Virus record (IMG/VR): IMGVR_UViG_3300008108_003798 | Origin: a virus | Taxonomy: Duplodnaviria; Caudoviricetes | Strand: one strand, 5' to 3' | DNA length: 64,000 nt | Shown here: positions 7,807 through 58,910 of the stretch, piece after piece | Position numbering within the stretch: the stretch's first letter is position 1 | How the letters are laid out: each line of letters opens with the position of its first letter | Notes under the pieces: model-generated | Databases searched by the model: none | What the model saw: the letters and a program-made list of their open reading frames with translations, nothing else | What the model was told of the DNA's origin: nothing | Position numbers and translations under genes: made by a program

Positions 7807-8313
7807 TTATCTCTTGGTTCCAGTAAGTTGAATAGCGTATCTATCGTGCATACTTAGATTGTAAACAGCATGTGGATCATCGCTGTCCCACTGTATCCAA
7901 TCACCTGCACACCACTCGCCAAATGTTTTTCCGCAGGCCTGCGATACCTGTCCCGGCTGGCTGTCTTCAAGCATGATGATAATACGAGTAACTTCTTCGT
8001 TGTTGAGTTTGTTGACTTGCTTGTATCTGCCAAACAAATCAACGTGCATAGGAAGATACTGTCCGGGCTTGAACAAGTTAATTGCTATTGCAATATGATC
8101 CAAATGATCAAATGCAGGAATGATATAATTGTCAACAGACTCGGGCATAGGATTTGGTTGGAAATAGTTCCACAGAGTCATATACATTTTGCTATGCCCG
8201 TGGCTGGCATACTCATTGAGTAATCTGTCGTCCTTGTGTGTATCGAACTTGTAATTGAGAGTTTTAAAGTCCTCAATATTCCAATTTGGTTCGATATGTC
8301 CGGTGTTAAGCAT
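7807..8313 (-). CDS. cupin/2OG-Fe(II) oxygenase-like protein
   Basis: PMHVD (HxD) and distal PHAVYN His; TATAAATA upstream. Confidence 0.55.
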   Translation of the reverse strand: MLNTGHIEPNWNIEDFKTLNYKFDTHKDDRLLNEYASHGHSKMYMTLWNYFQPNPMPESVDNYIIPAFDHLDHIAIAINLFKPGQYLPMHVDLFGRYKQVNKLNNEEVTRIIIMLEDSQPGQVSQACGKTFGEWCAGDWIQWDSDDPHAVYNLSMHDRYAIQLTGTKR

Positions 8314-8329
8314 TTCAATCTCCTTCGGT

Positions 8330-8740
8330 TTATTTATAAGTTAATTCCGCTAGGAGTTTGTAATTTTCCCATGCTTTTTTAGCAGCTAGGTTTGTTTCTA
8401 GATTCTCAGGTGTTAACATTACATCATACCAGTAGTGATTCATACGAGGCGGATGAGCACCATACTGTCGCGGTTGATGCATCTTCCCTTCGTTTTTCAA
8501 ACTAATACAAATATCACGAACAGCCTGTTCATCCTCTGCAGGAATGTTGCTCCATTCGGGCTGACTGTACATACTTCCAAGACCATTACCGCCAGCATAA
8601 CCTTCCCAAATACCAGTCCATTGTTTGTCGTCTTCTGGATCAAAATCTGTACGGGCGATGACTACTAATACTTCATCAATGTGTACAGTGTCTTCGTAAA
8701 TATCCTTTACGCAACGGCTAAGACTGGTTCCGATTTTCAT
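8330..8740 (-). CDS. conserved phage hypothetical protein
   Basis: MKIGTSLSRCVKDI N-terminus; coupled ORF chain. Confidence 0.65.
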   Translation of the reverse strand: MKIGTSLSRCVKDIYEDTVHIDEVLVVIARTDFDPEDDKQWTGIWEGYAGGNGLGSMYSQPEWSNIPAEDEQAVRDICISLKNEGKMHQPRQYGAHPPRMNHYWYDVMLTPENLETNLAAKKAWENYKLLAELTYK

Positions 8741-8979
8741 TTACGTTTCTCCAATTGATAGTTAAGGACAAAGTTTTCTACAAGTAGTTTTGTAATAGTT
8801 GCCATAGCAACAGTCAGCATGTCGCTGTCGTTGATGTCGTTAAACTGCTCTACAACACTGTTAGCCATCAAGCGATAAGCCGCAGACTCTTCAATTGGCA
8901 ACATACCCCAATCAATAGGGTCTTTGAATTCTGCTTCTTGTGCTAGATCTGCAAGTTGTTCAACTGTTAATTTTGACAA
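8737..8979 (-). CDS. hypothetical protein
   Basis: ATGA overlap with downstream gene. Confidence 0.6.
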   Translation of the reverse strand: MSKLTVEQLADLAQEAEFKDPIDWGMLPIEESAAYRLMANSVVEQFNDINDSDMLTVAMATITKLLVENFVLNYQLEKRK

Positions 8980-9682
8980 TTTTATAATCCGGTGTTAATC
9001 TATAATGTAATGCGTCGTGAGCAGGATGCTTGTTATACGCAACAGTGGCTTCGATCTCGATACTACGTCCAGCAGCAATCAAGTAGTCCCACACAGGAAT
9101 TGCTGGACTATAAGACTCCAAGTTTAGTACCATAAGGTGATTGTGACGATCTTTAAAGTAGTAACGCCACATGTTTTCACGCTTTGCAGTTCTGTGTACT
9201 TTACCTACAAACTCAATTTCGCCGGCAAAGTAACCAGGGATACTATGCGGATTGATTGATTGTACATTTTTAAAAATCTCAACAGTAGCAACACTCTCGT
9301 CATGAAAGCCAGGAAGTGTGATCAGCGGAGCCAGCCATTCTTTTTTGATCTTACGTGGCGAGTACAGTGCTTGATCAACAGTTTTCATCCACTCGCTCAT
9401 GTGTTGATTTTTAAGTCTACGTAACATGAAATTGTTTTGAAAGTGTTTACGAACTTGATCAGCACGTTCATATGATTCTGAAGAAATTTCAAAATTTGCT
9501 GGGTAATTTCCACTCAAGATGTTTGTGTAAATTTCAGTGCCGTATGTGGTTTTTGAAAGTTGAACAACAGCCGCAAGAGTATCGTACGGAGTATCCACAG
9601 GGTCTGTTTCAATTTTTTTGACAGTCTCAAAGTCGTCAACGGAAAATACCACGTTAAAGGGTTGTGCTATATTCATGTCCAA
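8960..9682 (-). CDS. hypothetical protein
   Basis: 240-aa ORF in coupled chain. Confidence 0.65.
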   Translation of the reverse strand: MDMNIAQPFNVVFSVDDFETVKKIETDPVDTPYDTLAAVVQLSKTTYGTEIYTNILSGNYPANFEISSESYERADQVRKHFQNNFMLRRLKNQHMSEWMKTVDQALYSPRKIKKEWLAPLITLPGFHDESVATVEIFKNVQSINPHSIPGYFAGEIEFVGKVHRTAKRENMWRYYFKDRHNHLMVLNLESYSPAIPVWDYLIAAGRSIEIEATVAYNKHPAHDALHYRLTPDYKIVKINS

Positions 9683-10482
9683 AGACTCGCTCTAATTTTA
9701 ATAAGACGGATCAGCATTTCGGTATCTTCGTCCTCGTAAGCCTTTTCCATTTCACGCATCGTGTCGTGCATTTTTGCAGTATCCCACTTGTCTGCTTCGG
9801 GATCTTCGTCGAGTAGGTCGATGCCACGTTCACGCTGATTGTCACAGTAGTTGCTCCAACCGCTTGCATCCATAGGTTCGGGACGATTAGGATATACTTC
9901 AGTCCACCAACGGTAAAGTGCAACAATCTCTTGTGCAGTTTCTGCTTGGTAAGTGGGTTTTGCTTGGCTTTTATCGTCAATCCATTCTTCGTCAGTAAGA
10001 GTCATTTCCCACGCAAGATGAGCAAGTCCTGCTTCGGCACTGCGCCAAGTTCTAGTGCGCCAACGACCTACTTGCCACCAACGCATATCTTTGGATTTTT
10101 CTTCACTCCAGCGATAGCCGCTATATGCTTTTTCGATTTCAACAAAGTCTACAAGTTCATCAAACAGGCAGTAAAGTATACGTGTATCCATATCACGATA
10201 CTCACCAGGCTTAATGTGCTTAGGATGAGCAACAAGTGCGTGAGTTTGATCAATCCAACGATTTACAATGTAATACTTTACACTGTATAAACGATCGGTA
10301 GGCCAGCAAACAAAGTTTTGCAGTTTATCCAGACCTTCTTCGGCAATCCAATAACGGATAGGATGTGATGCACGAGCAAGATTTTTCCACTGCTTCCAAC
10401 CCGGGCTGGTTTCGAAGTTGGGTTTAGCAGTGCCGCGAAGCCAATCGGCAAAACGGCTGCAACTCCAGTAATTAGATCTCAT
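9673..10482 (-). CDS. Trp-rich conserved phage hypothetical protein
   Basis: 269-aa ORF; ends MLIRLIKIRASLWT. Confidence 0.7.
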   Translation of the reverse strand: MRSNYWSCSRFADWLRGTAKPNFETSPGWKQWKNLARASHPIRYWIAEEGLDKLQNFVCWPTDRLYSVKYYIVNRWIDQTHALVAHPKHIKPGEYRDMDTRILYCLFDELVDFVEIEKAYSGYRWSEEKSKDMRWWQVGRWRTRTWRSAEAGLAHLAWEMTLTDEEWIDDKSQAKPTYQAETAQEIVALYRWWTEVYPNRPEPMDASGWSNYCDNQRERGIDLLDEDPEADKWDTAKMHDTMREMEKAYEDEDTEMLIRLIKIRASLWT

Positions 10483-18763: not shown

Positions 18764-19003
18764 ATGATTTGGATAGATTATAATATAACTCAAGCCGGCG
18801 GCAATTTTAGAGTCGAAGGTGAATGGCCTGGAGAAGTTATGGGGCTCGACAGACAGGGCAATCCCGGAAACAAGAAACGTCCGTTGTATCAACCCGGTGA
18901 TGTTTTTATAGTTAACAAGGATGGGTGGCTTGTTAAACAAGAAGAATTGACATCACTGATGTTAACATATGAGAGTAAAAAATCTACTTTGTCAGGGCAA
19001 TAA
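18764..19003 (+). CDS. hypothetical protein
   Basis: 79-aa ORF converging on the cyclase. Confidence 0.6.
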   Translation: MIWIDYNITQAGGNFRVEGEWPGEVMGLDRQGNPGNKKRPLYQPGDVFIVNKDGWLVKQEELTSLMLTYESKKSTLSGQ

Positions 19004-21026
19004 ACACGCCATTCCAATCTGCTGGCAATGTTTGCGTTTTCATGTATTCACAACGTTCAATCCACATATCGTAGTATTTTTCCATTTTGCCGTCAAATGC
19101 TCTGCGAATTAAATTACACTGTTCTATTGCTTCATCAAACTGTTTCATACGATATAGTTTGTGCATTTGATCATGATGTTTTTTACTGGTTTTCCATGTT
19201 GGTTTAACATCGTCTAATACAGTATAGATAGCAACACCTACAGTTTTACCTTTAACTGCTAAGTCATCTACTTTGAGGAAGAAGAATTCGTCTTTGCACT
19301 GTTCTACTGTAGCGCCACCCACGAGTAATAAGCAGCCGTATTCTTTACATTTTGATTCGATTCTTGCGGCGGTGCTGACTGCGTCTCCAAGTACGTCGTA
19401 ACTGTGACGTTTGGTTGACCCCATTTCTCCGATGTATCCGAGACCTGTGTTGATTCCGGCGCCCATGCCAACTGGTGGTCTTCCTTGGGGTATGATGACT
19501 GTTTCATTAAAATTCTCTACTGCTCGTAACATTTTTAAACCAGTAGCAACTGCTGTCTTTGCATGTTCAGGATCGTCTACTGGTGCATTGTGTATATGCA
19601 TACTTGCATCACCGATATATTTAATAATCATACCGTTTGCATCTAGCACAGGCTGTGTGATAGCATCCATGTATCCATTCATTATTTTAGTAAGTCCTGC
19701 AACATCGTCGCCGAAACTTTCACCTAATGGTGTAAAGCCACGTAAATCGCTAAACAGTATGCTTACTTCTTTCTTCATGCCTTTCTTGACAAGATCTGGG
19801 TTTGTTTGCAATAACTTAACTACGGCAGGTGATGCATATCCTTCGAACTGTTTCTTGATTGCTTGCTTTTGTAAGAACTCACTTACAAATTTGATTACAT
19901 AACGTATAATACCTACAAGCAATAGAAACGCCGCAGGTAAAAATCCATCAATCAAGAAGTTGTAGGTAGCAAAGGCATAGATGCTACCACCGATTGACCC
20001 ACCTACAAGTATTACAAAAATGCCAATGCCCGCATAAGTCCAACGTGCAGCAACTATTAGTGCTAATCCGGCAAGTACAAATGCTAATAATTCGGCACCT
20101 GGTGACCATGCAGGGCGTTCTATGTTACTTGCATTAAACACTGTGCCTAACATCATAGCCTGTAGTTCATGTGGCCACACGCCGCCTTTGGCTGTTGCAA
20201 TTGGTTGTGTAATGCCAGCCGCAGTAGGACCTACAAATACTATACCTCCGGCAAAGTCTGCAGGTAGTTCTGCTGCACTGTGACTGCTAAAGCCTTGACT
20301 CCAGTCTAACCATACTCTACCAAGTCCATCAGTTTGTAGTACACCGTATTGCGGAATTCGTAATTTGTCAACTCCCAACGGTGATAATTTGATTTGGAAA
20401 CTAGGATCCCCTGCTAGAACTCTAAGCACTTCCATAGTAACGTTAGGGTATAGTATTCCTCCACTTTCTAGTACTAGCGGAGCACGTCTGACAACTCCAT
20501 CAATTTCTGGAAAGGTATTGATAATTCCTGACCCAACTGCTGCATTTTCAATGGCAGGCACGTTTGCTGTGATGCCAGGCACGGCAGGGATAAGATCAAT
20601 AAAGTCACTATTAATGATACTAGCACCAGGGTTGATTGGTTCATTTTTATTTTCCTCAGTTCCTAACATTGTAACTACAACAGGATAATTACCCATAGTA
20701 GTTGATAGTATCCTGTCTTGTCCTGCTCTGTCTGTTTCGCTCATCAACACGTTAAACACAACTAGTCCTGCGCCACGTGCATATAGATCCTCTATTAGTT
20801 TAGCATAATCGCCTCTTGGCCAAGGCCACTGACCGCGAGCAGTAATACTTGCTTCATCTATATTAACTGTATAAATGTTATTTTCTACAGGTGCTTGATT
20901 TACTATCAACTGATCAAAATATCGTAAACGTAGACTTTCCAAAAAATCAGGGTTACTGAACTGTAACCAGCCCAACAACCCTAAAATTACAATGCTCCAA
21001 ACAGGTGATAATAACAGTTTTTTCAC
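18984..21026 (-). CDS. CHASE2-domain class III adenylate cyclase
   Basis: N-terminal TM, CHASE2 (V.IDE.S....GQWPWPR), 3 TMs, FSDLRGFT, IKYIGDA, YDVLGDAVSTAARIES. Confidence 0.92.
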   Translation of the reverse strand: MKKLLLSPVWSIVILGLLGWLQFSNPDFLESLRLRYFDQLIVNQAPVENNIYTVNIDEASITARGQWPWPRGDYAKLIEDLYARGAGLVVFNVLMSETDRAGQDRILSTTMGNYPVVVTMLGTEENKNEPINPGASIINSDFIDLIPAVPGITANVPAIENAAVGSGIINTFPEIDGVVRRAPLVLESGGILYPNVTMEVLRVLAGDPSFQIKLSPLGVDKLRIPQYGVLQTDGLGRVWLDWSQGFSSHSAAELPADFAGGIVFVGPTAAGITQPIATAKGGVWPHELQAMMLGTVFNASNIERPAWSPGAELLAFVLAGLALIVAARWTYAGIGIFVILVGGSIGGSIYAFATYNFLIDGFLPAAFLLLVGIIRYVIKFVSEFLQKQAIKKQFEGYASPAVVKLLQTNPDLVKKGMKKEVSILFSDLRGFTPLGESFGDDVAGLTKIMNGYMDAITQPVLDANGMIIKYIGDASMHIHNAPVDDPEHAKTAVATGLKMLRAVENFNETVIIPQGRPPVGMGAGINTGLGYIGEMGSTKRHSYDVLGDAVSTAARIESKCKEYGCLLLVGGATVEQCKDEFFFLKVDDLAVKGKTVGVAIYTVLDDVKPTWKTSKKHHDQMHKLYRMKQFDEAIEQCNLIRRAFDGKMEKYYDMWIERCEYMKTQTLPADWNGVFIALTK

Positions 21027-28507: not shown

Positions 28508-29191
28508 TTATTCAATGTCTGGAAACAAACATTCTTGTACGAATGCTCTTACATCTTCTTCGTTGAGCCCTAATGCTGTCATAGTACGTGGTGTATGTGG
28601 ATTTTGTTTTTGATAATATGCATAGCGATTTTGTGCAGTCTTACCCAATTCTGCTGTGCAAGTGCCTGCATACTTTTGTATTTCAGTACCGTAATCTTCT
28701 AGATTAGCCCACGACAATTGTAGAAGTTTAAGCAGTTCTTCTTCGGTGTTAACATTGCCCACTGCCAACATGTGTTTGCTAAAAATTGCCTGCGCCCATT
28801 CAGGTAACTCGCGTTCTTTCTTCCAAGAGTGATCTTTTAGAACATCACCAAACTGTTCAATCATAGCATGGTTGTTGTCGACAGTAGGAGATAGATCGTG
28901 AAAGAATCCAGTGACTTTGTTTTTGCCTGCAATTACATCAAGCCCGTAGATTGGTCCAGAATTGTCCAGGTGTGGAAAAATACAAAAGTGCATCATCCAG
29001 AGACCTTTTGTTTCTCTGGCATCGACTACATCTAGATGTATGCGTCTTGCCCAGCCACTTTCCCAAACAAGATTGATCCAGCCGGGTTGATTGAATCTGT
29101 CCATCCCAGGTTCATTAACACGTTCTGCGACTGAGTCTAAGTTATCAACAACTTCTTCTTGCCAGTCAATTAAGTAATTCCATACTGTCAT
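28508..29191 (-). CDS. pcyX: ferredoxin-dependent bilin reductase (PcyX/PcyA-like)
   Basis: RRIHLDVVDARETKGLWMMH, GLDVIAG, FHDLSP, ELPEWA..IFS, QKQNPHT; ATG at 29191 forms an ATGA overlap. Confidence 0.8.
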   Translation of the reverse strand: MTVWNYLIDWQEEVVDNLDSVAERVNEPGMDRFNQPGWINLVWESGWARRIHLDVVDARETKGLWMMHFCIFPHLDNSGPIYGLDVIAGKNKVTGFFHDLSPTVDNNHAMIEQFGDVLKDHSWKKERELPEWAQAIFSKHMLAVGNVNTEEELLKLLQLSWANLEDYGTEIQKYAGTCTAELGKTAQNRYAYYQKQNPHTPRTMTALGLNEEDVRAFVQECLFPDIE

Positions 29192-30360
29192 CTGATATCC
29201 CAATAATAATAAATTATACTTTTTTTTCCGTTTACAACGTCTTCTACAGTAGATACCTCAGCATCGGCCCCGAAGACATGGCCGAAGTGAAAAAGATCAT
29301 AAAGTAGAATGTCACAAATTTTATCCCCGTCATTGAATTTTAATTTTTTAATTAGTTGTTTTTGCTCATTTACAACACTATTAAATAAAACATTGTAATT
29401 GTGATTTACATCGTCGTTTATTCTCTCAAAATCTAAATTTTTCCAGTTTTCTCTTATATGACAAATGTTTTTAAATGCTGCTTCGAATCGATGTTCGTTG
29501 GAAGTTATGTTGTCATAATTTATTGGAAAACAATATTCAAATGTTTTAAATCCTTGAGATCTTAAGTGTTCTTCTGATCCGGGTTGACCAAACAATATAA
29601 ACGGATGTCTATTTATTATGGCTCTATATGTTTTTTCAGTAATCCATAAGACAGATCTGTTTGCTCCTGTTTCGGAAATTAGTGACCATGAAGTATCCGA
29701 ATATAGATTCTGACTGTAGGGAAATCCATCATAACTAAAAAGATTTCCGTACTGTGAAACTTTGATGTTGTCTGGATTTCTTGAAGCAGAAGAAACAAAG
29801 TGTTGCAATTCGCCATTGTTGATATTTAAAAATCTCTTAATATCTACTGCATATTCTTTATAATAAAAGAAACTCCATTCCATGTCAATTTCATTTAACA
29901 AGTTATTATCTAATAAAAATTTTAATGGTATTAGTCTTTGAGGCTTATGCGCTTTTCCTGTAAGTAACAATCCTCTAAACTTGGATTTATCCCATTTTTT
30001 TGCTGTTTGTTGATTGTTGATGGTTGTTGCATGTACTGTCTTGCTTTGGAAAAAATTGTATTTTATAATATTTTTTGGAAGATCATCTTGATCATCTGCA
30101 CATACACTATATAAAATAAAAAAATCTACATTGTAATTTTTGAGTTTGTTTTTAAAAAAGTTGTGTAAAAAGTTTAAATCTTTAACAAATGTTATTTCCC
30201 ACATATGATTTAAAACAAATACAATTTGTTCATTTATTCCACGAGACTTTATGTTTTTTAAAAATATTTGCATGTCAGAAAAGCATTCTTCATATTGTGG
30301 TGCATCATCCATTACATCACTAAAGTACGGTAATCTAACATGAACAAAAAGTTTACTCAT
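29188..30360 (-). CDS. AT-rich glycosyltransferase-like protein
   Basis: SLISET..ITEKTYRAI..HPFILFG....L..QGFKTF motif seen in phage GT-like genes; markedly low GC. Confidence 0.55.
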   Translation of the reverse strand: MSKLFVHVRLPYFSDVMDDAPQYEECFSDMQIFLKNIKSRGINEQIVFVLNHMWEITFVKDLNFLHNFFKNKLKNYNVDFFILYSVCADDQDDLPKNIIKYNFFQSKTVHATTINNQQTAKKWDKSKFRGLLLTGKAHKPQRLIPLKFLLDNNLLNEIDMEWSFFYYKEYAVDIKRFLNINNGELQHFVSSASRNPDNIKVSQYGNLFSYDGFPYSQNLYSDTSWSLISETGANRSVLWITEKTYRAIINRHPFILFGQPGSEEHLRSQGFKTFEYCFPINYDNITSNEHRFEAAFKNICHIRENWKNLDFERINDDVNHNYNVLFNSVVNEQKQLIKKLKFNDGDKICDILLYDLFHFGHVFGADAEVSTVEDVVNGKKSIIYYYWDIR

Positions 30361-30880
30361 CTAACTCAACAAACAACTGCATTGCAAATTCAAAACAACG
30401 ATTTGCTTCCTCTGCCATTGAGTCGTTTAACATAGATCTAACAGTTGCTTTGAGTTCTTCTACGTTATCAAAATCGTACATGGTGCCCGAACCAGGATTG
30501 CGTTTTCTAATCATTTGCCCGCCGTACATATCGCCAAAATGACGAACATATATGTGTGCAAGTATTCCTTGCCTGTCTAAAGTTATAACATGACGTTCAT
30601 ATTCACGTACAACCGGCATCAGTAGTGCAGATGTTGTGCCGATAGCATATTCTTTTTCAATTTCTCTAAGATCGGCGTAGATTCGTTCTGCTCTGTTTAT
30701 ACTCTTGAGTTCGGGTACTAATGATTTAGCAGCATCTTCCAGTATTGAATAAATCATATATTGATTGTAGAGATATTTGTGATACTCTTCAGGGGTTAGA
30801 CCTTTAAGTAGTTTGCAAGCGAACTCAGTACGCTCTGCTCGTTGATGTACTTCCCAAGTGAGTTCTTTTAGTTTGCTCAT
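30353..30880 (-). CDS. ho1: heme oxygenase
   Basis: LKELT.EVHQRAE (proximal His), Y..LE, R...I..DL, AHIYVRHFGDMYGGQMI. Confidence 0.9.
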   Translation of the reverse strand: MSKLKELTWEVHQRAERTEFACKLLKGLTPEEYHKYLYNQYMIYSILEDAAKSLVPELKSINRAERIYADLREIEKEYAIGTTSALLMPVVREYERHVITLDRQGILAHIYVRHFGDMYGGQMIRKRNPGSGTMYDFDNVEELKATVRSMLNDSMAEEANRCFEFAMQLFVELDE

Positions 30881-35974: not shown

Positions 35975-36067
35975 TGCCGATCCTCCATTATGTAGGTATT
36001 TATTGAATACAAAAAAAAAAGGGTTCTATTTTATAGGACCCTTTTTGACTTTGTATTTTAGCGTAGA

Positions 36068-36859
36068 TTAGAAGTTAAATGATACGCCAATTGCAGGAGT
36101 AGTTTCTTCAGTGTCTAGATTGTAACCAACTTCAGCAAATGCACTTAGGCTATCCTTGGTGTAGACAACGCCAGCACCGATGTTCTGTGCCATGTCGGTT
36201 TCGTCACCGTTGATGAAAGCAGAAACGTCTAGTGCGTCCATTGCACCGTAAGTACCCATTGCTTCATAAGCAAATTCATCAGCATAAGTAACAGTTACGT
36301 TAGCATAAAGTGCTTCGCTAACATCAACACCAGTTGCTACTGCAACAGTAGTGTCCTCGGTGTCAAGATTGTAGTCAAGTGCTCCGGCTACATCAATCTT
36401 ACCGTAGTCGTTGCTATAAGCAATCTGAACGTTTTCAATGTCGCCTACATTGGTGCTGATGTCAGTTAAACCAACAAGAACTTCAACTGCACCGTGGCTA
36501 ACAATCACACTCTCGTGATCGTCTGCTGGATCAGCAAGAGTATCGCCGCCAACAACTTCTAAGCCGCCAAAGCCAAACAAGTCGCCTTGATCGCCAAAAC
36601 TAACACTAGTGCCGCCAAATGCTACACCAACATGCCACGAGTCAACAACAAGATCGCTGCCGTCTGCTTCTACGCCAACAGCGCCAAATGCAGTTGCGCC
36701 TTCGGCTTTGTGACCAAATGACAATTCAACAGTTGGAGTTGCAACAAAATTGCCAGCAACGTTTTTGGTGAATTCAGCGCCAACAGTGCCGCCAAAATCA
36801 GCAGCAAATGCAGCACCAGCAAATGCAATGGCTGCAACAGTAGTAAGTAATAGTTTCAT
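36068..36859 (-). CDS. alphaproteobacterial general porin (Rhodobacter-like)
   Basis: Signal peptide; acidic amphipathic beta strands; C-terminal IGVSFNF; terminator at about 36012-36047. Confidence 0.75.
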   Translation of the reverse strand: MKLLLTTVAAIAFAGAAFAADFGGTVGAEFTKNVAGNFVATPTVELSFGHKAEGATAFGAVGVEADGSDLVVDSWHVGVAFGGTSVSFGDQGDLFGFGGLEVVGGDTLADPADDHESVIVSHGAVEVLVGLTDISTNVGDIENVQIAYSNDYGKIDVAGALDYNLDTEDTTVAVATGVDVSEALYANVTVTYADEFAYEAMGTYGAMDALDVSAFINGDETDMAQNIGAGVVYTKDSLSAFAEVGYNLDTEETTPAIGVSFNF

Positions 36860-37008
36860 AAAGTTTTTCCCTTTGTTATTATAATGGCAAATTTCTTGCT
36901 CATTCGTAATATTAGTTATAACAGATATTCTGTAAAATACAACTAGTTTGAACAGATATCTAGGGTTTTTTGAAAATGCTTTTTAAATGTGTGTTCAATG
37001 TGCAACAG

Positions 37009-37212
37009 TTACATAACACCTTGCATTTTTTCAATTACTGGTACCAGTCTTTCAAGTATGACAGTAATCAGTATGAATGCAAGTAAACCAAATAAAACCC
37101 AATTTTTCTTTTTGCTTTGACTCAGCAGTGCCATAGCAATGATTTCATTGCCCAACAGTCTTAGGCTGATTTCAAATTTTTCTTCTGGTGCTGGGTTATC
37201 GTTGTCGTCCAT
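37009..37212 (-). CDS. small membrane protein
   Basis: EISLRLLGNEIIAM plus TM segment. Confidence 0.6.
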   Translation of the reverse strand: MDDNDNPAPEEKFEISLRLLGNEIIAMALLSQSKKKNWVLFGLLAFILITVILERLVPVIEKMQGVM

Positions 37213-37216
37213 ACAA

Positions 37217-37372
37217 CTATTTAGTTTTACGACGAGTGTTTTTCTTTGGCTGTTCCACTGTTGGCTTTAGAGTGACGTGACGTTCTTTATATCTTCCACA
37301 ACGACCTTTGCCTACATAGTAGGGAGTGCCATCTTCTCGCAGGTATTCGTAAACATAGTAATCTGTGTGCAT
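37217..37372 (-). pseudogene. truncated GIY-YIG homing endonuclease fragment
   Basis: MHTDYYVYEYLREDGTPYYVGKG.. then a stop after 51 aa. Confidence 0.6.
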
Positions 37373-37385
37373 AATAGTATTTATG

Positions 37386-37790
37386 AGGAGATTCTGTTGC
37401 TACGCTCTCCCCGGGCGCCCTGTAGTTATGCTGCTAGAGCAAACTCAGAAGGTGCAAAATTTTCATTTGCAGTTGTCATTTTCTTCGCGGTAACGGCGCT
37501 TAGATCCCGGTGACTCCATCCTGCCTAGTTCGTTGATCGATCCTATGTCAGGCCCATCATAAAAATACTGCGATTAATCCTAATACTAAAACAAATATAA
37601 TACTTACATTACCCCAAAAGATCTGTTCTTGCTCAGTCGGTACCTGTTCATCACAGTACTTTTTCCAATCAAGATCTTCGCTTCTGTCTTTACTCTCATC
37701 GTAATATACATACATCATCAGTCTTCTTATGGTGGACCTGCCGGGTGCCGCCCCCGGGTCTCATCCGTGTTCAGTGAACTTCAACATCAC
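37386..37790 (-). ncRNA. ssrA: circularly permuted two-piece tmRNA; tag (A)ANENFAPSEFALAA
   Basis: Acceptor piece ends CAGGTCC-A-CCA at 37730; coding piece starts GGGCCTG at 37555; 7-bp acceptor stem with G3.U70; tag ORF 37470..37426; outer ends approximate. Confidence 0.88.
37557..37718 (-). CDS. 53-aa single-TM protein inside the tmRNA intervening segment
   Basis: MMYVYYDESKDRSEDLDWKKYCDEQVPTEQEQIFWGNVSIIFVLVLGLIAVFL; stop lies 1 nt before the mature tmRNA 5' end. Confidence 0.6.
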   Translation of the reverse strand: MMYVYYDESKDRSEDLDWKKYCDEQVPTEQEQIFWGNVSIIFVLVLGLIAVFL

Positions 37791-37794
37791 AAGT

Positions 37795-37825
37795 TATTTA
37801 TATGCTAAAACAGTCAACCAGTCAA
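37795..37825 (-). promoter_or_regulatory. tmRNA promoter (sigma70 plus embedded late motif)
   Basis: TTGACT-17 nt-TATAAA; the -10 is part of TATAAATA. Confidence 0.7.
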
Positions 37826-37850
37826 GAACTTTTTTGTGTATGCTTGTTCG

Positions 37851-40730
37851 TCATTTCGCTGCTGCAATACGACGTGAGAGAGTGGCTTGAGCGTTGTATT
37901 CCTCTTGCCATTTCGACGGGCCGTTGGAGGGCGACACCTGAACTGCCGTAACCTTGTATTCTGGACAGTTGGTAGCCCAATCGCTGAAATCGGTGGTGAT
38001 AACATTGGCTTGGGTGTCGGGGTGGTGGAAGGTGGTGTAGACCACGCCCGGATTGACTTTGTCGGTCAGTGTTGCTCGCAGGGTGGTTTCCCCGGCACGT
38101 GAGGCCAGACGCACCCAATCACCCTCTTTGACACCGCGCACTTCAGCATCGTGGGGATGGATTTCCAACAAATCTTCAGTATGCCATATACTGTTCGCTG
38201 TGCGGCGTGTTTGGGCGCCCACGTTGTACTGCGACAGGATACGGCCCGTGGTGAGTAGCAGCGGGAAACGCGGGCCAGTGCGTTCATCAGTGGCAATATA
38301 TTCGGTGTTGATGAACCGACCTTTGCCACGCACGAAGGCATCGACGTGCATCAAAGGCGTGCCTTCAGGCGCTTTTTCGTTGCAGGGCCACTGGACCGAG
38401 CCCATCTCTTCGATCTTGTCATAGCTGACACCGGCGAAGGACGGCGTGGTCATGGCAATCTCTTCCATGATCTGCACCGGGTGGGTGTAGTTCCAGTTGG
38501 CACCCATTGCGTTAGCGAACAACTGGGTGACTTCCCAATCGGCATAACCCGGCTTCGGAGCCATTACCTTGCGTACCATGTTGATGCGGCGCTCAGTGTT
38601 GGTAAAGGTGCCGTCCTTTTCCAAGAAACTCGATCCAGGGAAGAACACATGGGCGTAGTTTGCGGTCTCGTTCAGGAACAGGTCATGCACGATCACGCAT
38701 TCCATCGCTGCCAGACCTGCCGCAACGTGCTTGGTGTCCGGGTCAGATTGCAGGATGTCTTCGCCTTGGCAGTACAACCCCTTGAAGGTGCCCTCCACGG
38801 CGGCATCCAGCATGTTGGGGATACGCAGGCCCGGCTCATTATCGATCTTCACGCCCCAGAGGTTTTCATAGATTGCCCGTACATCGTCGTTCTTCACATG
38901 GCGGTAACCCGGCAGTTCGTGCGGGAAGGATCCCATGTCGCACGAGCCTTGCACGTTGTTTTGGCCACGCAGCGGGTTCACACCCACGCCCGGACGGCCA
39001 ATGTTGCCGGTCATCATCGCCAAGTTTGCAATGCCGATCACGGTGGTCGAGCCTTGCGAATGTTCCGTCACGCCCAGACCGTAGTAGATCGAGCCGTTGC
39101 CGCCGGTGGCATAGGTGCGGGCCGCGGCGCGGACATCCTCGGCCTTGACGCCGGTTAGGATTTCCACCGCTTCGGGCGAATGGTTCGGGCGGCTGACAAA
39201 CTCGGCATAGTCTTGGAATTCATCCCAGTCGCAGCGGGTGCGGATGAACTCTTCGTTGTAGAGCTTTTCGGTCACGATCACATGCGCCAGTGCGGTGACC
39301 ATGGCCACGTTGGTGCCTGGTGTAAGTGCAAGGTGATGTACTGCTTTGATATGCGGGCTTACTACAATTTCAGTGCGGCGAGGGTCAATGACTATCAGTT
39401 TCGCTCCTTTACGCAGGCGTTTTTTTAGACGGCTTGCAAAGACCGGGTGACCTACAGCAGGATTGGCTCCAATCACAATGGCCACATCTGTATATTCTAC
39501 CGAATCAAAGTCTTGCGTTCCAGCACTGGTACCAAGAGTCTGACCCAAGCCATAACCGGTGGGCGAATGGCAGACGCGGGCGCAGGTGTCAGTGTTGTTG
39601 TTCAGGAACACTGCTCGAGTCAGTTTCTGCACCAGATAGGTTTCTTCATTGGTGCAGCGCGACGAGGTGATCACACCCACGGACTTTTGCCCGTATTTGG
39701 AAATTATGCCCTTCATGCGGTTCGCGGCGAATTCCATCGCCTCGGCCCACGAGACTTCTTTCCACGGGTCGTTGATGCTGTCGCGGATCATCGGCGACAG
39801 GATGCGGTCTTGGTGGGAGGCATAGCCATAGGCAAAGCGGCCCTTGACGCAGGAATGGCCACGGTTGGCCTTGCCGTGCTTGTAAGGGACCATCCGCACC
39901 AGCTCGTCGCCGCGCAGTTCAGCTTTAAACTGGCAACCCACACCGCAATAGGCGCAGGTGGTGATGACAGAGCGTTCCGGTGTGCCGATTTCGATGATCG
40001 ACTTTTCCTGCAAGGTCGCTGTCGGGCAGGCTTGTACGCAGGCACCGCAGGACACGCAATCCGAGGCCAGCGCATCATCGGTTTTTGCACCGAACGACAC
40101 ACGGCTGTCAAAGCCTCGACCTTCGATGGTCAGCGCAAAGGTGCCCTGCACCTCTTCACAAGCCCGCACACAGCGCGAGCAGACGATGCATTTCGCCGGG
40201 TCATAGGTGAAGTAGGGGTTGCTCTCGTCCTTGGCTTTCCACTGCGGATTGGCCTCGCCAGAGTTGTTCTTGGCGCGGAAGTGGGTGTCGATCGCCTCAT
40301 AGCGCACATCGCGCAGGCCGACGGCACCAGCCATGTCCTGCAACTCGCAATCGCCATTGGCCGAGCAGGTCAGGCAGTCCAGCGGGTGGTCCGAGATATA
40401 CAACTCCATTACGCCGCGACGCAGTTGTTTCAGATTGCCGGTTTGGGTTTTCACCCGGATGCCGGGGGCAACGGGCGTGGTGCAAGAGGCGGGCGTGCCA
40501 TTGCGGCCTTCGATTTCCACAAGGCACAGGCGGCAGGAGCCAAAGGCCTCAAGGTTGTCGGTCGCGCACAGCTTTGGCACTGTGATGCCAATCTCGGCGG
40601 CGGCTCGCATTATGCTGGTGTCTTTGGGCACGGTCACATCGAACCCGTCGATGTTCAGGGTCACCGTAGCGGTCGAACGCACATAGGGCGTGCCAAAATC
40701 GCGGTCCGAGGGAATAATGAAGTCTTTCAT
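37851..40730 (-). CDS. fdsA: NAD-dependent molybdenum formate dehydrogenase alpha subunit (959 aa)
   Basis: True start MKDFIIP at 40730; 2Fe-2S Cys set, HPLDCLTC..NGDC, CIVCSRCVRAC, CVSCGACVQAC, CAYCGVGC, active-site CARVCH, PLRGQNNVQG. Confidence 0.93.
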   Translation of the reverse strand: MKDFIIPSDRDFGTPYVRSTATVTLNIDGFDVTVPKDTSIMRAAAEIGITVPKLCATDNLEAFGSCRLCLVEIEGRNGTPASCTTPVAPGIRVKTQTGNLKQLRRGVMELYISDHPLDCLTCSANGDCELQDMAGAVGLRDVRYEAIDTHFRAKNNSGEANPQWKAKDESNPYFTYDPAKCIVCSRCVRACEEVQGTFALTIEGRGFDSRVSFGAKTDDALASDCVSCGACVQACPTATLQEKSIIEIGTPERSVITTCAYCGVGCQFKAELRGDELVRMVPYKHGKANRGHSCVKGRFAYGYASHQDRILSPMIRDSINDPWKEVSWAEAMEFAANRMKGIISKYGQKSVGVITSSRCTNEETYLVQKLTRAVFLNNNTDTCARVCHSPTGYGLGQTLGTSAGTQDFDSVEYTDVAIVIGANPAVGHPVFASRLKKRLRKGAKLIVIDPRRTEIVVSPHIKAVHHLALTPGTNVAMVTALAHVIVTEKLYNEEFIRTRCDWDEFQDYAEFVSRPNHSPEAVEILTGVKAEDVRAAARTYATGGNGSIYYGLGVTEHSQGSTTVIGIANLAMMTGNIGRPGVGVNPLRGQNNVQGSCDMGSFPHELPGYRHVKNDDVRAIYENLWGVKIDNEPGLRIPNMLDAAVEGTFKGLYCQGEDILQSDPDTKHVAAGLAAMECVIVHDLFLNETANYAHVFFPGSSFLEKDGTFTNTERRINMVRKVMAPKPGYADWEVTQLFANAMGANWNYTHPVQIMEEIAMTTPSFAGVSYDKIEEMGSVQWPCNEKAPEGTPLMHVDAFVRGKGRFINTEYIATDERTGPRFPLLLTTGRILSQYNVGAQTRRTANSIWHTEDLLEIHPHDAEVRGVKEGDWVRLASRAGETTLRATLTDKVNPGVVYTTFHHPDTQANVITTDFSDWATNCPEYKVTAVQVSPSNGPSKWQEEYNAQATLSRRIAAAK

Positions 40731-40761
40731 TCGGCGGCGTCCATCTGGGCTATTTGAGTGC

Positions 40762-40953
40762 TTACCATGTTTTTTTGCTCCATGCTTCTTCGAACCCGTC
40801 TTCGTGAACAACGTTTTCATGATTACCCCAGATACGTTCAAAGTAACCGTTGTACACACTCATGATGTCTTTTTCACTCCATGCATCTGGAATCAGGTGT
40901 CCTTTGACAATCCAATAATATCTATTGGCTTCTTTGTGTTCGTATGCTGTCAC
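40762..40953 (-). CDS. hypothetical protein
   Basis: YYWIVKGHLIPDAW; phage-like codon usage. Confidence 0.6.
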   Translation of the reverse strand: MTAYEHKEANRYYWIVKGHLIPDAWSEKDIMSVYNGYFERIWGNHENVVHEDGFEEAWSKKTW

Positions 40954-40967
40954 AGAGTATTTATTTT

Positions 40968-41177
40968 TTAATTCCCAAAAGAGTAGCAGGATTCAAGATC
41001 CACCCACTCATCTTCCATTTCTAGGCTTTCGGTGTAATCATAAACACCAATGCCTTTTAACCGTAGGTATGTAATGTCAATGGGTCGCATCAATACAGGA
41101 AGGGCGATTTCTCTGCAAGGATTGCTAATTTTGATTGGCCAGTCCACATCTACTAGATGTGCTTTAACTTTCGTCAT
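40968..41177 (-). CDS. hypothetical protein
   Basis: Likely start MTKVKA at 41177. Confidence 0.5.
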   Translation of the reverse strand: MTKVKAHLVDVDWPIKISNPCREIALPVLMRPIDITYLRLKGIGVYDYTESLEMEDEWVDLESCYSFGN

Positions 41178-41382
41178 CGCTGACTTCAACTTCAACTTCA
41201 ATTTCAACATCTTCAACAACGACCTTTTTTTTCTTTCTGCCGTAGAATCCAGAAGTATATTCAATTTCTTCTGTTCTTTCACCTGTTGAACAAACTTTAA
41301 CTTTGCCGCCTCGGTTGAGAAACTCCTCAATTAGTTCCTTTGGAGTATTATGGTGCATACGACCGATTGTGTTCATTGTCAA
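41164..41382 (-). CDS. small conserved phage protein
   Basis: IEEFLNRGGKVKVC motif. Confidence 0.6.
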   Translation of the reverse strand: MTMNTIGRMHHNTPKELIEEFLNRGGKVKVCSTGERTEEIEYTSGFYGRKKKKVVVEDVEIEVEVEVSDDES

Positions 41383-41587
41383 ACCTTTCTAAAATTTCTG
41401 TGACGTGTTTGCATTTTCCATAGAAAGTAAATCCAGTGCAACTGCACTCGAATCCGTTTTCAGTAACTGTAATGGAATATGTGTTGTTTTTGCTGCCTTT
41501 GGCAGTCCATTCTAAACCAAGCAGCAAAGAGTTTTTAAACGGTCCCCAACCTTCGGGCTTGTAGTAGCGTTTAGAAAACTTTTTCAT
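41348..41587 (-). CDS. SWIM zinc-finger protein
   Basis: ECSCTGFTFYGKCKH. Confidence 0.8.
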   Translation of the reverse strand: MKKFSKRYYKPEGWGPFKNSLLLGLEWTAKGSKNNTYSITVTENGFECSCTGFTFYGKCKHVTEILERFDNEHNRSYAP

Positions 41588-41634
41588 TGCTTGCTCCGTG
41601 TTGCTATTGAGTTATAGCATACAATAGATATCTG

Positions 41635-41967
41635 TCAAGTGTTTTTTCTGGAACGTTCCACCATGATGTCTAGAATTTCTTCAAGAGTCAAGTGATGCTG
41701 TTCCGGGTGCAGTCGCATTATTGTATTGCTAAATTCAGCATCGTCCTTGGCAATTAAACCAAAATTTACCAGCAGGTTTTCTTCTGTTAAATCATCGTTT
41801 AATTGATGTGCAGCCCAAATTGCAGACATTAACAGTACGTTAACTGATAGATCCTTACTGTTGATTTTATTATTGAGCAAGTATGAAATTGCTTTTTTTC
41901 TTACATTATAATAAAACGTTACCTTACGTGCAATTCCGTAAAGGTAATCAATGTTTTCTTTGTCCAT
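41635..41967 (-). CDS. hypothetical protein
   Basis: ORF track; TAATG coupling. Confidence 0.6.
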   Translation of the reverse strand: MDKENIDYLYGIARKVTFYYNVRKKAISYLLNNKINSKDLSVNVLLMSAIWAAHQLNDDLTEENLLVNFGLIAKDDAEFSNTIMRLHPEQHHLTLEEILDIMVERSRKNT

Positions 41968-42242
41968 TAAATCCTCGATTTGGGCATAAAAAAGTATAGC
42001 AAACTACCGCCAGGATTTACTGCCAATTTTAATTCTTCAGTGCGGAAATAGTCAATGCTGTGTCCAGTACGTTTCACGGTCCACATATCGCTGACTTTTT
42101 GATTCTGCACCATAATACTGGGTAGGTTGCGTTCAAAGGAAATTGCACGATAACGCAACACTTTGCCGTCAAATTGAGTGGGCTCAACTCCGTATTCAAC
42201 TTGAATATATTTTTTTAAATCGTTAAGTGTATCCATCGTCAT
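41967..42242 (-). CDS. hypothetical protein
   Basis: ORF track; GAGG RBS. Confidence 0.6.
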   Translation of the reverse strand: MTMDTLNDLKKYIQVEYGVEPTQFDGKVLRYRAISFERNLPSIMVQNQKVSDMWTVKRTGHSIDYFRTEELKLAVNPGGSLLYFFMPKSRI

Positions 42243-42262
42243 TTACCTCTATAGTGTATTTA

Positions 42263-42442
42263 TTATAGGTCAGTTTTCTTTTCTTGTATCTCTTTGCGAC
42301 GTTGAATGATTAGATCCTTCATTTCGTGTAGTGCTTGTCTTGCTCGAACAGCACTCGCCTTTACACCTTTTTGCTCGAACTTTTCAGTTTCCTGCAAATA
42401 GATAGCAAAGGCAAGTTTTAACTGTTCGTGCGTGTCACTCAC
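42263..42442 (-). CDS. histone H1-like (Hc1-type) small DNA-binding protein
   Basis: GTG start; EKFEQKGVKASAVRARQAL..MK.LI..RRKEIQEKK; absent from the ORF track. Confidence 0.6.
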   Translation of the reverse strand: MSDTHEQLKLAFAIYLQETEKFEQKGVKASAVRARQALHEMKDLIIQRRKEIQEKKTDL

Positions 42443-43004
42443 CGAGAATTACCTCACATACTTCTTGCCAGTTGTTTACGCGAACAACCGCTGGGTTTTG
42501 ATACCATTGATTGTGTGGATGATCAATAAGGATTGGACGGTGACCGTATTTCAAACCAGTGTCGCAGTTTTCTGGTTTGTCTTCGATCCACCAATGTCCC
42601 TGCTCGTACTTGTCTAAGGCGTCATCTTTGTCTGCACCAGTATCAAGGCAGATGAGATCGTCAAACGCAGCACTGCCGATAGTACGGTTAAGGTTGATCC
42701 AACGCAGTTCTTTGGCATATGGATCGAGGCTCAAACTGGTAATTACGTCAAAGCGGTAGCCCTCTGCAAACAATCGAGCAACACCTGTGTCTGCATCTCG
42801 CAGCACTGGCAAGCAACACATCCAAGCACTTTCGTTGAATTCACGTACAACGTCATGCTTGTCTTCTTTGGGGATACCGTATGCTTCAGCAAGGTTGTAG
42901 ATACCGTGCTTGATCTTGGTATAGCCTTTTTTAATCATCCACTCGTGGAATGGACCTTCCCAGTCCAGCAACACGCCGTCACAGTCCGTTAGAATCTTTT
43001 TCAT
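42435..43004 (-). CDS. HAD-family 5'(3')-deoxyribonucleotidase
   Basis: LTDCDGVLLDW, VITS, WIEDKPEN, ILIDHPHNQ. Confidence 0.85.
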   Translation of the reverse strand: MKKILTDCDGVLLDWEGPFHEWMIKKGYTKIKHGIYNLAEAYGIPKEDKHDVVREFNESAWMCCLPVLRDADTGVARLFAEGYRFDVITSLSLDPYAKELRWINLNRTIGSAAFDDLICLDTGADKDDALDKYEQGHWWIEDKPENCDTGLKYGHRPILIDHPHNQWYQNPAVVRVNNWQEVCEVILGE

Positions 43005-43052: not shown

Positions 43053-43343
43053 TCAACCAACCTTGACCGTAGACTGACCTGTTACAACTGTAGTTGCTCC
43101 ACATTTACGTAAATCACCATTTCGGTGTACAGGTGCACCGTAACAAAAAACAGTTCCGGATCCTTCGGCAGTGTCAGTTGGTGGCACAGGATGTAAGAAG
43201 CCATCTGGTTCTGCTGTGCTTTCGTGTACTATAATAGGTTTACCGTTTATTTTAACAGTTTGCGGACTAGAATCTCCGTCGGCATTTAACTCGCCGCCGC
43301 CGTGTGAATTTTGATCTCCTTCGACTGCCCACAACTCTGCCAT
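43053..43343 (-). CDS. PAAR-type tail spike tip (gp5.4-like)
   Basis: GD..SHGG, VKINGKPI, H, GSGTVF..G.PVHR.GD...CG. Confidence 0.8.
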   Translation of the reverse strand: MAELWAVEGDQNSHGGGELNADGDSSPQTVKINGKPIIVHESTAEPDGFLHPVPPTDTAEGSGTVFCYGAPVHRNGDLRKCGATTVVTGQSTVKVG

Positions 43344-57947: not shown

Positions 57948-58910
57948 TTACTTGTTAGCCCACTCTGCTTGAGTTGCTGCAAGTTCTGGATCTGGAACAA
58001 GACCGTATTGTGCTAGAGCACCGTCTGAGCCTGCCATTTCATCACTTACGAAGAATTGTACGTATTCTTTCAGTCCTGGGATTACTTCAAGGTGTGCATC
58101 CTTGACATAGAAGTAAAGCGGACGGCTGATTGGATAATCGCCACTTGAGATTGTTTCTACGCTGGGGAATACGCCGCTTACTGTAGCAACTTCTAGCTTG
58201 TCAGTGTTGTTCTGATAGAAACTAAGACCAAACACACCCAGTGCTGTATTATTCGCTGCAAGACGTGCAAGTGTCTCAGTGTAGTCGCCGTCGATATCAA
58301 TTGCTGCGCCATCAGTGCGAACCTTAACACAAGCCTTCTTCTGATCGTCGTCTAGTTTTTCAACACCTAGTGCTTCTTTACAACCTGCTTCCATAACCTT
58401 TACATCAAACACTTCTCTAGTGCCGTGCTTGGTACCTGGAATATAAGCAAGAATCTCTACCGCTGGTAGAGCAGGATCAACATCACTCCATAGTTTTGCA
58501 GTGCTGTCTGCGTGTAGTGCAGTGTACAGTTGAACTACAGTCAAGTCATCAATGTTGAGTTGATCAATGTTAGATGCAAATACAATGCCATCGTAACCAA
58601 TTCTAACTTCTGTAATAGGACCAACAACTTCTTCGCACTTGGCCCATTCTTCTTCTTTCATCTTTGAACTGCTGTTTGCAATGTCAACAGTGTTTTCACC
58701 AACGCCTTCGCATAATTTCTTACGGCCAGCGCCTGAACCACCGCCTTCAACTACTGGCGACGGAAATTCAAAATTTTCTCCAAATGCTTCAGCAACAATG
58801 GTTGCATATGGTAGAACTGTAGATGAACCAGTAACTTGAACATTGTCTCTTGCAAGTGCTGGTGTGGATAGTACTAGGGCTGCAACGGCAGCGATAGCAA
58901 ATGAACGCAT
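57948..58910 (-). CDS. pstS: phosphate ABC transporter substrate-binding protein
   Basis: Signal peptide; VTGSSTVLP, GGGSGAG, DIANSS, GYDGIV, PG..HGTREVF, YPISRPLYFY. Confidence 0.92.
   Translation of the reverse strand: MRSFAIAAVAALVLSTPALARDNVQVTGSSTVLPYATIVAEAFGENFEFPSPVVEGGGSGAGRKKLCEGVGENTVDIANSSSKMKEEEWAKCEEVVGPITEVRIGYDGIVFASNIDQLNIDDLTVVQLYTALHADSTAKLWSDVDPALPAVEILAYIPGTKHGTREVFDVKVMEAGCKEALGVEKLDDDQKKACVKVRTDGAAIDIDGDYTETLARLAANNTALGVFGLSFYQNNTDKLEVATVSGVFPSVETISSGDYPISRPLYFYVKDAHLEVIPGLKEYVQFFVSDEMAGSDGALAQYGLVPDPELAATQAEWANK

Follow-up and report, generated by a model that had tools for sequence, protein, structure and literature searches.

An orphan fdsA gene for the catalytic subunit of a formate dehydrogenase in a large freshwater myophage

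Knowledge of auxiliary metabolic genes in phages is most advanced for photosynthesis and nutrient uptake. The cyanophage gene psbA, which derives from the host, encodes D1, a core subunit of a multi-subunit complex; it is under purifying selection, and its patchy intragenic G+C content is consistent with exchange between phage and host. Here, a gene in a phage of a heterotroph is described: fdsA, encoding the alpha subunit of an NAD-dependent formate dehydrogenase, on a stretch of 64,000 nucleotides from IMG/VR virus record IMGVR_UViG_3300008108_003798 (in the following, the window), which represents 64 kb of a probably much larger phage genome. The described enzyme used for comparison is FdsGBAD of Rhodobacter capsulatus (PDB 6TGA and 6TG9). 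Among phages, formate dehydrogenase, GMP reductase and heme genes were listed among the genes unique to deep-ecotype pelagimyophages (Zaragoza-Solas et al. 2020, PMC7029224). The HTVC008M/Melnitz group of myophages, to which the window is compared below, is characterised by genes for curli pores and by a transfer-messenger RNA (tmRNA) in two pieces, which is reported to follow phage ancestry and not the current host (Buchholz et al. 2022, PMC9004378).

The gene in question is located as follows.

37851 to 40730, minus strand: fdsA, intact open reading frame (ORF) of 959 codons, with ATG at 40730 and the stop codon at 37851-37853.

According to family models and the alignment with 6TGA, the gene product is the alpha subunit, i.e. 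the catalytic subunit containing molybdenum bis(molybdopterin guanine dinucleotide) (Mo-bisMGD) and Fe-S clusters. It passes the NCBIfam equivalog model for Fdh-alpha (TIGR01591; 926.8 bits, cut-off 666.25). The Pfam domains Fer2_4, NADH-G_4Fe-4S_3, Fer4_7, Molybdop_Fe4S4, Molybdopterin and Molydop_binding were found, giving a complete architecture of NuoG-type 4Fe-4S region, di-cluster ferredoxin domain, and molybdopterin and dinucleotide-binding domains. R. capsulatus FdsA (6TGA chain A; also 6TG9) aligns end to end (residues 1-958, 1700 bits) and shares the domain order, all Fe-S cysteines and both active-site motifs, the Cys-His motif CARVCH (residues 383-388) and the Arg motif PLRGQNN (residues 586-592), which align with chain A of 6TGA. 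In an alignment with 162 bacterial homologues, 27 of 27 invariant cysteine columns are retained, and of the 499 columns conserved at >=98%, all but two are unchanged. Unlike its R. capsulatus counterpart, the phage copy stands alone, its codon composition has moved part of the way toward that of the phage, and its start is possibly altered. Queries with FdsG, FdsB, FdsC and FdsD of the donor operon yielded no tblastn match in the window at E<1. These searches bear out an earlier reading made from the sequence alone (the sequence-only reading), which had described an intact 959-codon FdsA with all Fe-S cysteines and both motifs in a window devoid of fdsG, fdsB, fdsC and fdsD.

In base composition, fdsA is the sole high-GC island of the window. 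In 300-nt intervals, its mean GC content is 0.578 (range 0.51-0.64), compared to 0.405 +/- 0.042 outside, in agreement with the 55-63% against about 40% in the flanks that had been estimated by eye. The step matches the ends of the coding sequence; the few other 300-nt intervals with a GC content >=0.50 are isolated and lie mostly over tRNA genes. A compositional step of this sharpness, together with 91% nucleotide identity to a bacterial gene, is what an assembly chimera or bacterial contamination of the phage contig would produce, and a chimera had been kept as a caveat in the sequence-only reading. Of the sampled 31-mers from positions 36500-42000, 82-100% are present in each of 14 DNA runs from at least 11 studies, derived from lake, freshwater and 'fungus' metagenomes of 2017-2024. 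The junctions were checked in Logan contigs of two of these runs (X7 and X9), which were independently assembled, belong to two studies and carry no flag as putative source of the record. One contig of X9 (37476-38051, with a single difference) crosses the junction between tmRNA and fdsA, and the upstream junction is crossed by contigs of both runs (from 40629 in X9 and from 40347 in X7, each to beyond 42000). The depth of fdsA equals that of its flanks (approx. 5.5 vs 5.7 in X9, 14-18 vs 15.2 in X7). Moreover, the two junctions bracket exactly one gene, oriented like the phage genes, and its GC content at third codon positions (GC3) has been lowered by AT-biased substitutions which no GC-rich bacterium would produce. 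A chimera can thus be given next to no probability, and the gene is confirmed to be truly phage-borne; bridging contigs and matching depth remove the caveat. A further contig of X7 diverges from the window at 37802 and then matches exactly two phage contigs without fdsA (L040 and L041); since this one contig switches to fdsA-less relatives, variants with and without fdsA co-occur in this sample. With phage genes on both sides, flanks kept in IMG/VR relatives and several assemblies containing it, fdsA qualifies as a phage auxiliary gene.

The source of the gene could be narrowed down. The best protein match (97% amino acid identity) is encoded on an ENA lake contig (L004) with 62% GC and housekeeping genes around an operon of the order fdsG-fdsB-DUF4287-fdsA-fdsC-fdsD, followed by named genomes of Tabrizicola, 'Rhodobacter' sp. 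and other freshwater Rhodobacteraceae at 85-88%. The sequence-only reading had proposed a phylogeny against Rhodobacteraceae and a search for fdsA at the same locus of related phages. In codon and protein trees, the phage copy is nested within freshwater Rhodobacteraceae (Tabrizicola, Cypionkella and 'Rhodobacter' types) as sister to L004; in the codon tree this placement is fully supported, and the phage branch is four times longer than that of L004 (0.071 vs 0.018). Homology to the donor (blastn vs L004, 91.3% nucleotide identity) is confined to positions 40750-37845, from 20 nt before the ATG to approx. 6 nt past the stop codon. The gene sequences and trees show that fdsA was captured alone, as a single gene, from a freshwater Rhodobacteraceae lineage.

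At the same locus, related phages carry something else. To the left and right of the fdsA site, related phage contigs show synteny with the window (70-86% nucleotide identity over the flanking genes), with approx. 9.4 kb of other genes between the same landmarks or almost nothing (L043); therefore, the site is a variable cargo locus. None of the genes in the 9.4-kb cargo has a homologue in the window. Fdh-alpha was absent from all ten related phage records examined, one of which is 92% complete. Megablast of positions 36000-43000 against sequenced phages gave no match. A tblastn search with FdsA against sequenced phages returned unannotated fragments and bacterial-looking records, none of them from the HTVC008M/Melnitz group; these were not taken as evidence for phage-borne fdsA.

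The phage itself is shown to be a large T4-like freshwater myophage of the HTVC008M/Melnitz-like group. It shares with this group CsgG, CsgF, a two-piece tmRNA of the alpha type and a FecR/curlin protein, for which HTVC008M (Pelagibacter) and Melnitz (Methylophilales) phages gave the only matches among sequenced phages. From CheckV estimates for related IMG/VR records, genomes of around 350 kb are expected; a T4-type major capsid protein is encoded by a more distant relative of 342 kb. Cultured members of the group, in contrast, have genomes of approx. 145 kb and lack fdsA, and the phage of the window is a freshwater one.

The junctions between donor and phage DNA can be drawn to within a few nucleotides, as listed here for both ends of the gene.

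40731 to 40750, minus strand: 20 nt retained from the donor in front of the ATG, delimited by blastn and by a junction alignment with three bacterial contigs (L004, L005 and L045).
40731 to 40820, minus strand: in-frame upstream extension of 30 Lys/His-rich codons, with GGGG before the ATG at 40820; putative alternative start.
40762 to 40953, minus strand: conserved small phage ORF of 63 amino acids in the left flank, 85% identical at the nucleotide level in related IMG/VR phage contigs.
37845 to 37850, minus strand: last donor-derived bases past the stop codon, left over from the overlapping start of fdsC (ATGA), delimited by blastn and junction alignment.
37382 to 37829, minus strand: gene of a two-piece alpha-type tmRNA in the right flank (RF01849, 95.6 bits).

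In the donor operon, the TGA of fdsB overlaps the ATG of fdsA, and the 20 nt at 40731-40750 are a remnant of the 3' end of fdsB. The stop codon of the 63-codon ORF lies 12 nt before the beginning of donor homology. The start codon of the phage gene is uncertain, because its frame stays open upstream to an ATG at 40820 (989 amino acids) and a GTG at 40859 (1002 amino acids); in a different frame, the adjacent phage ORF ends within the extension at 40731-40820. An A-to-T change in the donor ribosome-binding site (40731-40750) also yields a five-codon mini-ORF (ATG GAC GCC GCC GAA TGA), the stop of which overlaps the fdsA ATG; this might reflect translation coupling or chance. At the right edge, the tmRNA gene directly downstream of fdsA is 93-98% identical in three related phage contigs (L039, L040 and L041), and its conserved promoter (TTGACT-17 nt-TATAAA at 37825-37797, with the -35 box at 37825-37820 and the -10 box at 37802-37797) lies within approx. 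20 nt of the donor DNA. The position between phage genes and the tmRNA promoter is as the sequence-only reading had given it. In two relatives (L039 and L040), a terminator hairpin immediately precedes the -35 box of the tmRNA, whereas in the window the end of fdsA takes its place (37797-37845); transcripts of fdsA may therefore read through into the tmRNA precursor. A scan for promoters and terminators gave counts at chance level.

Substitutions in fdsA were polarised with L005 and L045 as outgroups, and the two sister branches differ in both number and direction of changes.

Phage branch: 120 substitutions, 96 synonymous and 24 non-synonymous; 98 GC>AT and 9 AT>GC.
L004 branch (bacterial sister): 34 substitutions, 30 synonymous and 4 non-synonymous; 11 GC>AT and 8 AT>GC.

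GC3 is 0.69 in the phage gene and 0.80 in the bacterial gene (0.27-0.49 in phage genes), while the GC content at first and second codon positions is unchanged. The pairwise ratio of non-synonymous to synonymous substitution rates (dN/dS) between phage fdsA and L004 is 0.057. Because a GC-rich bacterium would not produce such an AT bias, the changes accrued inside the phage with the protein held constant. Hence, fdsA is shown to be maintained by strong purifying selection while drifting toward the AT-rich composition of the phage.

The phage-branch changes are clustered along the gene (chi-square p=2e-6), which divides into three kinds of sequence.

Most 80-codon intervals of fdsA: GC3 0.70-0.79; dS 0.275 and dN 0.015 vs L004.
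39291 to 39530, minus strand: fully ameliorated patch, GC3 0.40 (0.78 in bacterial relatives); dS 0.84 and dN 0.080 vs L004.
37851 to 38330, minus strand: partly ameliorated 3' segment, GC3 0.57-0.61; dS 0.66 and dN 0.023 vs L004.

Compared to the rest of the gene, the patch of 240 bp has 3-fold dS and 5-fold dN vs L004; the control pair L004-L005 shows no excess in it (dS 0.46 vs 0.47). On the simplest reading of these rates, the patch would be an older phage-resident segment and the remainder would have been refreshed from a bacterial copy, from which repeated recombination between phage and host may be inferred. The mosaic is thus compatible with gene conversion between phage and host copies.

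These data also bear on the possibility that fdsA is a recent neutral passenger, introduced by illegitimate recombination, which has no role and will decay. A GC content still far above the phage background, the absence from ten related phage records (including the one 92% complete) and a weakened ribosome-binding site would all fit such a passenger. With 96 synonymous changes, however, about three times as many non-synonymous changes would be expected, along with stops and frameshifts, whereas there are only 24, in an intact frame. That the changes arose in the phage is shown by the AT bias. The patch at phage-equilibrium GC3 keeps a dN/dS of approx. 0.1, the same construct was present in samples from 2017 to 2024, and in a second phage lineage an orphan fdsA has persisted to full amelioration. 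Neutral carriage is therefore regarded as quite improbable.

This second lineage is represented by a marine IMG/VR contig of 72 kb and a GC content of approx. 0.37 (L001, IMGVR_UViG_3300025120_009955). It has about ten genes in common with the window in the same order, including CsgG, the FecR/curlin gene and a CHASE2 cyclase. The latter, a class III nucleotide cyclase with a CHASE2 sensor, adjoins the curli-type genes and is 47% identical between both contigs (18984-21026 in the window, 17673-19685 in L001). FdsA of L001 (946 residues, TIGR01591 885 bits) is encoded at a different genomic site and is 66% identical to the window protein; with a GC content of 0.40, like its surroundings, the marine gene is fully ameliorated. 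The clade around it comprises more than 60 clusters (90-100% identity), whose contigs reach 184 kb. Beyond this clade, identity falls to 76%, where the gene lies in a bacterial fdsA-fdsC-fdsD arrangement with rho and L31 as neighbours (L206). In the protein tree, the marine clade is separate from the Rhodobacteraceae clade and sister to FdsA of low-GC marine bacteria. Three contigs of the marine clade were inspected and are phage-like; besides L001, these are L205 (133 kb) and L002, which carry the same orphan fdsA next to other neighbours. In the parts of the three contigs examined, fdsG, fdsB, fdsC and fdsD were not found beside fdsA, and an FdsB-type domain was not found in five related records. 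Between L001 and L205, dN/dS is 0.10 at a dS of 0.57. Another IMG/VR contig with fdsA (L003, GC 0.54-0.62) has a bacterial appearance and was not considered further.

Separate origin, different site, full amelioration and 66% identity distinguish the marine gene from the window copy. Two related phage lineages have captured fdsA independently, and each has retained the alpha subunit alone. Like the window, the marine clade has a lone FdsA-type alpha subunit in a myophage-like setting; it may be the clade of the deep-ecotype pelagimyophages (PMC7029224), whose GMP reductase is also present in the window. The sequence-only reading, which did not know fdsA as a common phage gene, needs tempering here: formate dehydrogenase had already been mentioned for phages, and the marine orphan clade is large. 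The window fdsA is a new, independently acquired case of what marine pelagimyophages already hinted at, with an evolutionary history that can be read unusually well.

What the phage might gain from a single subunit is suggested by comparison to psbA, an analogy which was drawn in the sequence-only reading and has since gained real support from the lone catalytic subunit in two captures, the purifying selection and the mosaic of host- and phage-type codons. Similar to psbA, fdsA encodes a catalytic core subunit alone, is under purifying selection in the phage and has a patchy G+C content. It differs in that its product is a cytoplasmic molybdoenzyme with elaborate cofactor maturation, the host counterpart of which is not known to turn over rapidly, and in occurring only sporadically in its phage group. 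Two further ideas of the sequence-only reading, a damage-prone FdsA and a supply of C1 units or NADH for nucleotide synthesis, gained no such support. To function, a subunit of 959 residues with Mo and Fe-S centers needs host maturation factors and, in all likelihood, host partner subunits as well. The phage FdsA probably joins host partners, its gene having become a mosaic by recombination with that of the host, and sustains NAD+-linked formate oxidation for energy. In this scheme, phage and host copies would recombine repeatedly during infection, as in cyanophage psbA. FdsA would be translated in the infected cell and receive Fe-S clusters and sulfurated bis-MGD from the host, by way of Fe-S assembly, molybdenum cofactor synthesis and FdsC. 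It would then dock on host FdsG, FdsB and FdsD, so that conversion of formate to CO2 with formation of NADH would be raised or sustained and the energy of the cell kept up once expression of host genes falls. The phage protein would plausibly fit a donor-like host, given its near-identity to the operon-encoded FdsA, and dissimilatory oxidation of C1 compounds for energy is suggested by the methanol-type dehydrogenase adjoining fdsA in the marine relative.

Several points weigh against this scheme. Docking on FdsGB is predicted only from the 97% identity to the donor protein and the full-length similarity to R. capsulatus FdsA. Two substitutions, G37D and A712T, affect columns conserved at >=98% among the bacterial homologues. 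The donor Shine-Dalgarno sequence AGGAG/AGGAA is degraded to TGGAC in the phage, and the start codon is in doubt. The GC content of the phage (40%) is far from that of the donor (62%). Since 64 kb of a probably much larger genome are visible, partner genes may be encoded elsewhere in the phage. Finally, a transcript of the phage allele was not seen in the metatranscriptomes with contigs on parts of fdsA (X15, freshwater, and X17, riverine). Within positions 38778-40557, their RNA contigs are 95-98% identical to the phage gene, with 2-10 third-position differences each. As these contigs carry the bacterial allele and one of them continues into an exact 30-mer of L004, they were taken for transcripts of bacteria, and a donor-like Rhodobacteraceae fdsA is present in freshwater RNA libraries.

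Some of these observations might also be explained by a FdsA acting without host FdsGB, with ferredoxin or another electron acceptor or in another non-canonical role; ferredoxin reduced in this way would feed the phage heme oxygenase, the bilin reductase or the ribonucleotide reductase system. Both independent captures retained the alpha subunit alone, the window encodes a ferredoxin-dependent bilin reductase, heme oxygenase, glutaredoxin and NrdAB, and donor and current host may be different bacteria, given the difference in GC content between donor and phage. Such a function is nevertheless unlikely, as the phage FdsA retains in full the NuoG-like N-terminal Fe-S chain connecting it to FdsB and shares 97% identity with a FdsA from an operon, and no precedent was found.

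FdsGBA of R. capsulatus can reduce CO2, and the same complex could also run in reverse or serve assimilation, reducing CO2 to formate or providing formate for one-carbon units in purine synthesis. The genes near fdsA would suit this: nrdA, nrdB, a glutaredoxin gene and that of GMP reductase, as named in the sequence-only reading (nrdAB, grx and guaC) and recovered in the window annotation, together with a 5'-nucleotidase-like gene. In contrast, formate-tetrahydrofolate ligase or other folate genes were not seen in the window, and the location of the marine fdsA directly after a pyrroloquinoline quinone (PQQ) dehydrogenase points to dissimilatory C1 oxidation. Reverse or assimilatory use thus has little probability, and docking of the phage FdsA on host partners for NAD+-linked formate oxidation is preferred.

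On a broader scale, it is conceivable, and is put forward tentatively, that HTVC008M/Melnitz-like myophages repeatedly recruit the last enzymes of C1 oxidation, which are kept compatible with the host by gene conversion, and that infected cells burn formate, and also methanol, to CO2. If true, this would extend a psbA-like strategy to phages of chemo-organotrophs and give viruses a direct hand in the flux of C1 compounds to CO2 in lakes and oceans. Two independent captures, a subunit retained alone and purifying selection in both cases make viral use of formate oxidation a testable case, and the expression system for R. capsulatus FdsGBA should make functional tests straightforward. The compositional contrast between gene and phage provides a rare internal clock, as substitutions after the transfer are visible, and the mosaic suggests continuing exchange with the host.

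The ORFs of the window are located almost all on one strand, and many are unnamed; most of those neighbouring fdsA received no name in searches against PHROGs and Pfam. In addition to 12-13 tRNA genes, an exonuclease and a DNA methyltransferase are encoded. A PAAR-motif protein of 96 amino acids is encoded at 43053-43343, between the genes for nucleotide metabolism. Host-type genes identified by Pfam (28508-30880 and 57948-58910) encode the ferredoxin-dependent bilin reductase, heme oxygenase and PstS. The cargo of the relatives at the fdsA locus (337-7566 in L039 and 4413-5369 in L040) includes an Rnl1-type RNA ligase, a protein with an L7/L12 C-terminal domain, cREC_REC, a cell-wall hydrolase and an SPFH/Band-7 protein. 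In the marine contig L001, the dehydrogenase directly upstream of the orphan fdsA (8020-9894) belongs to the PQQ-dependent methanol/ethanol family (TIGR03075, 608 bits), and SoxYZ is encoded a few genes downstream, which looks like a virus-borne gene set for C1 and sulfur oxidation.

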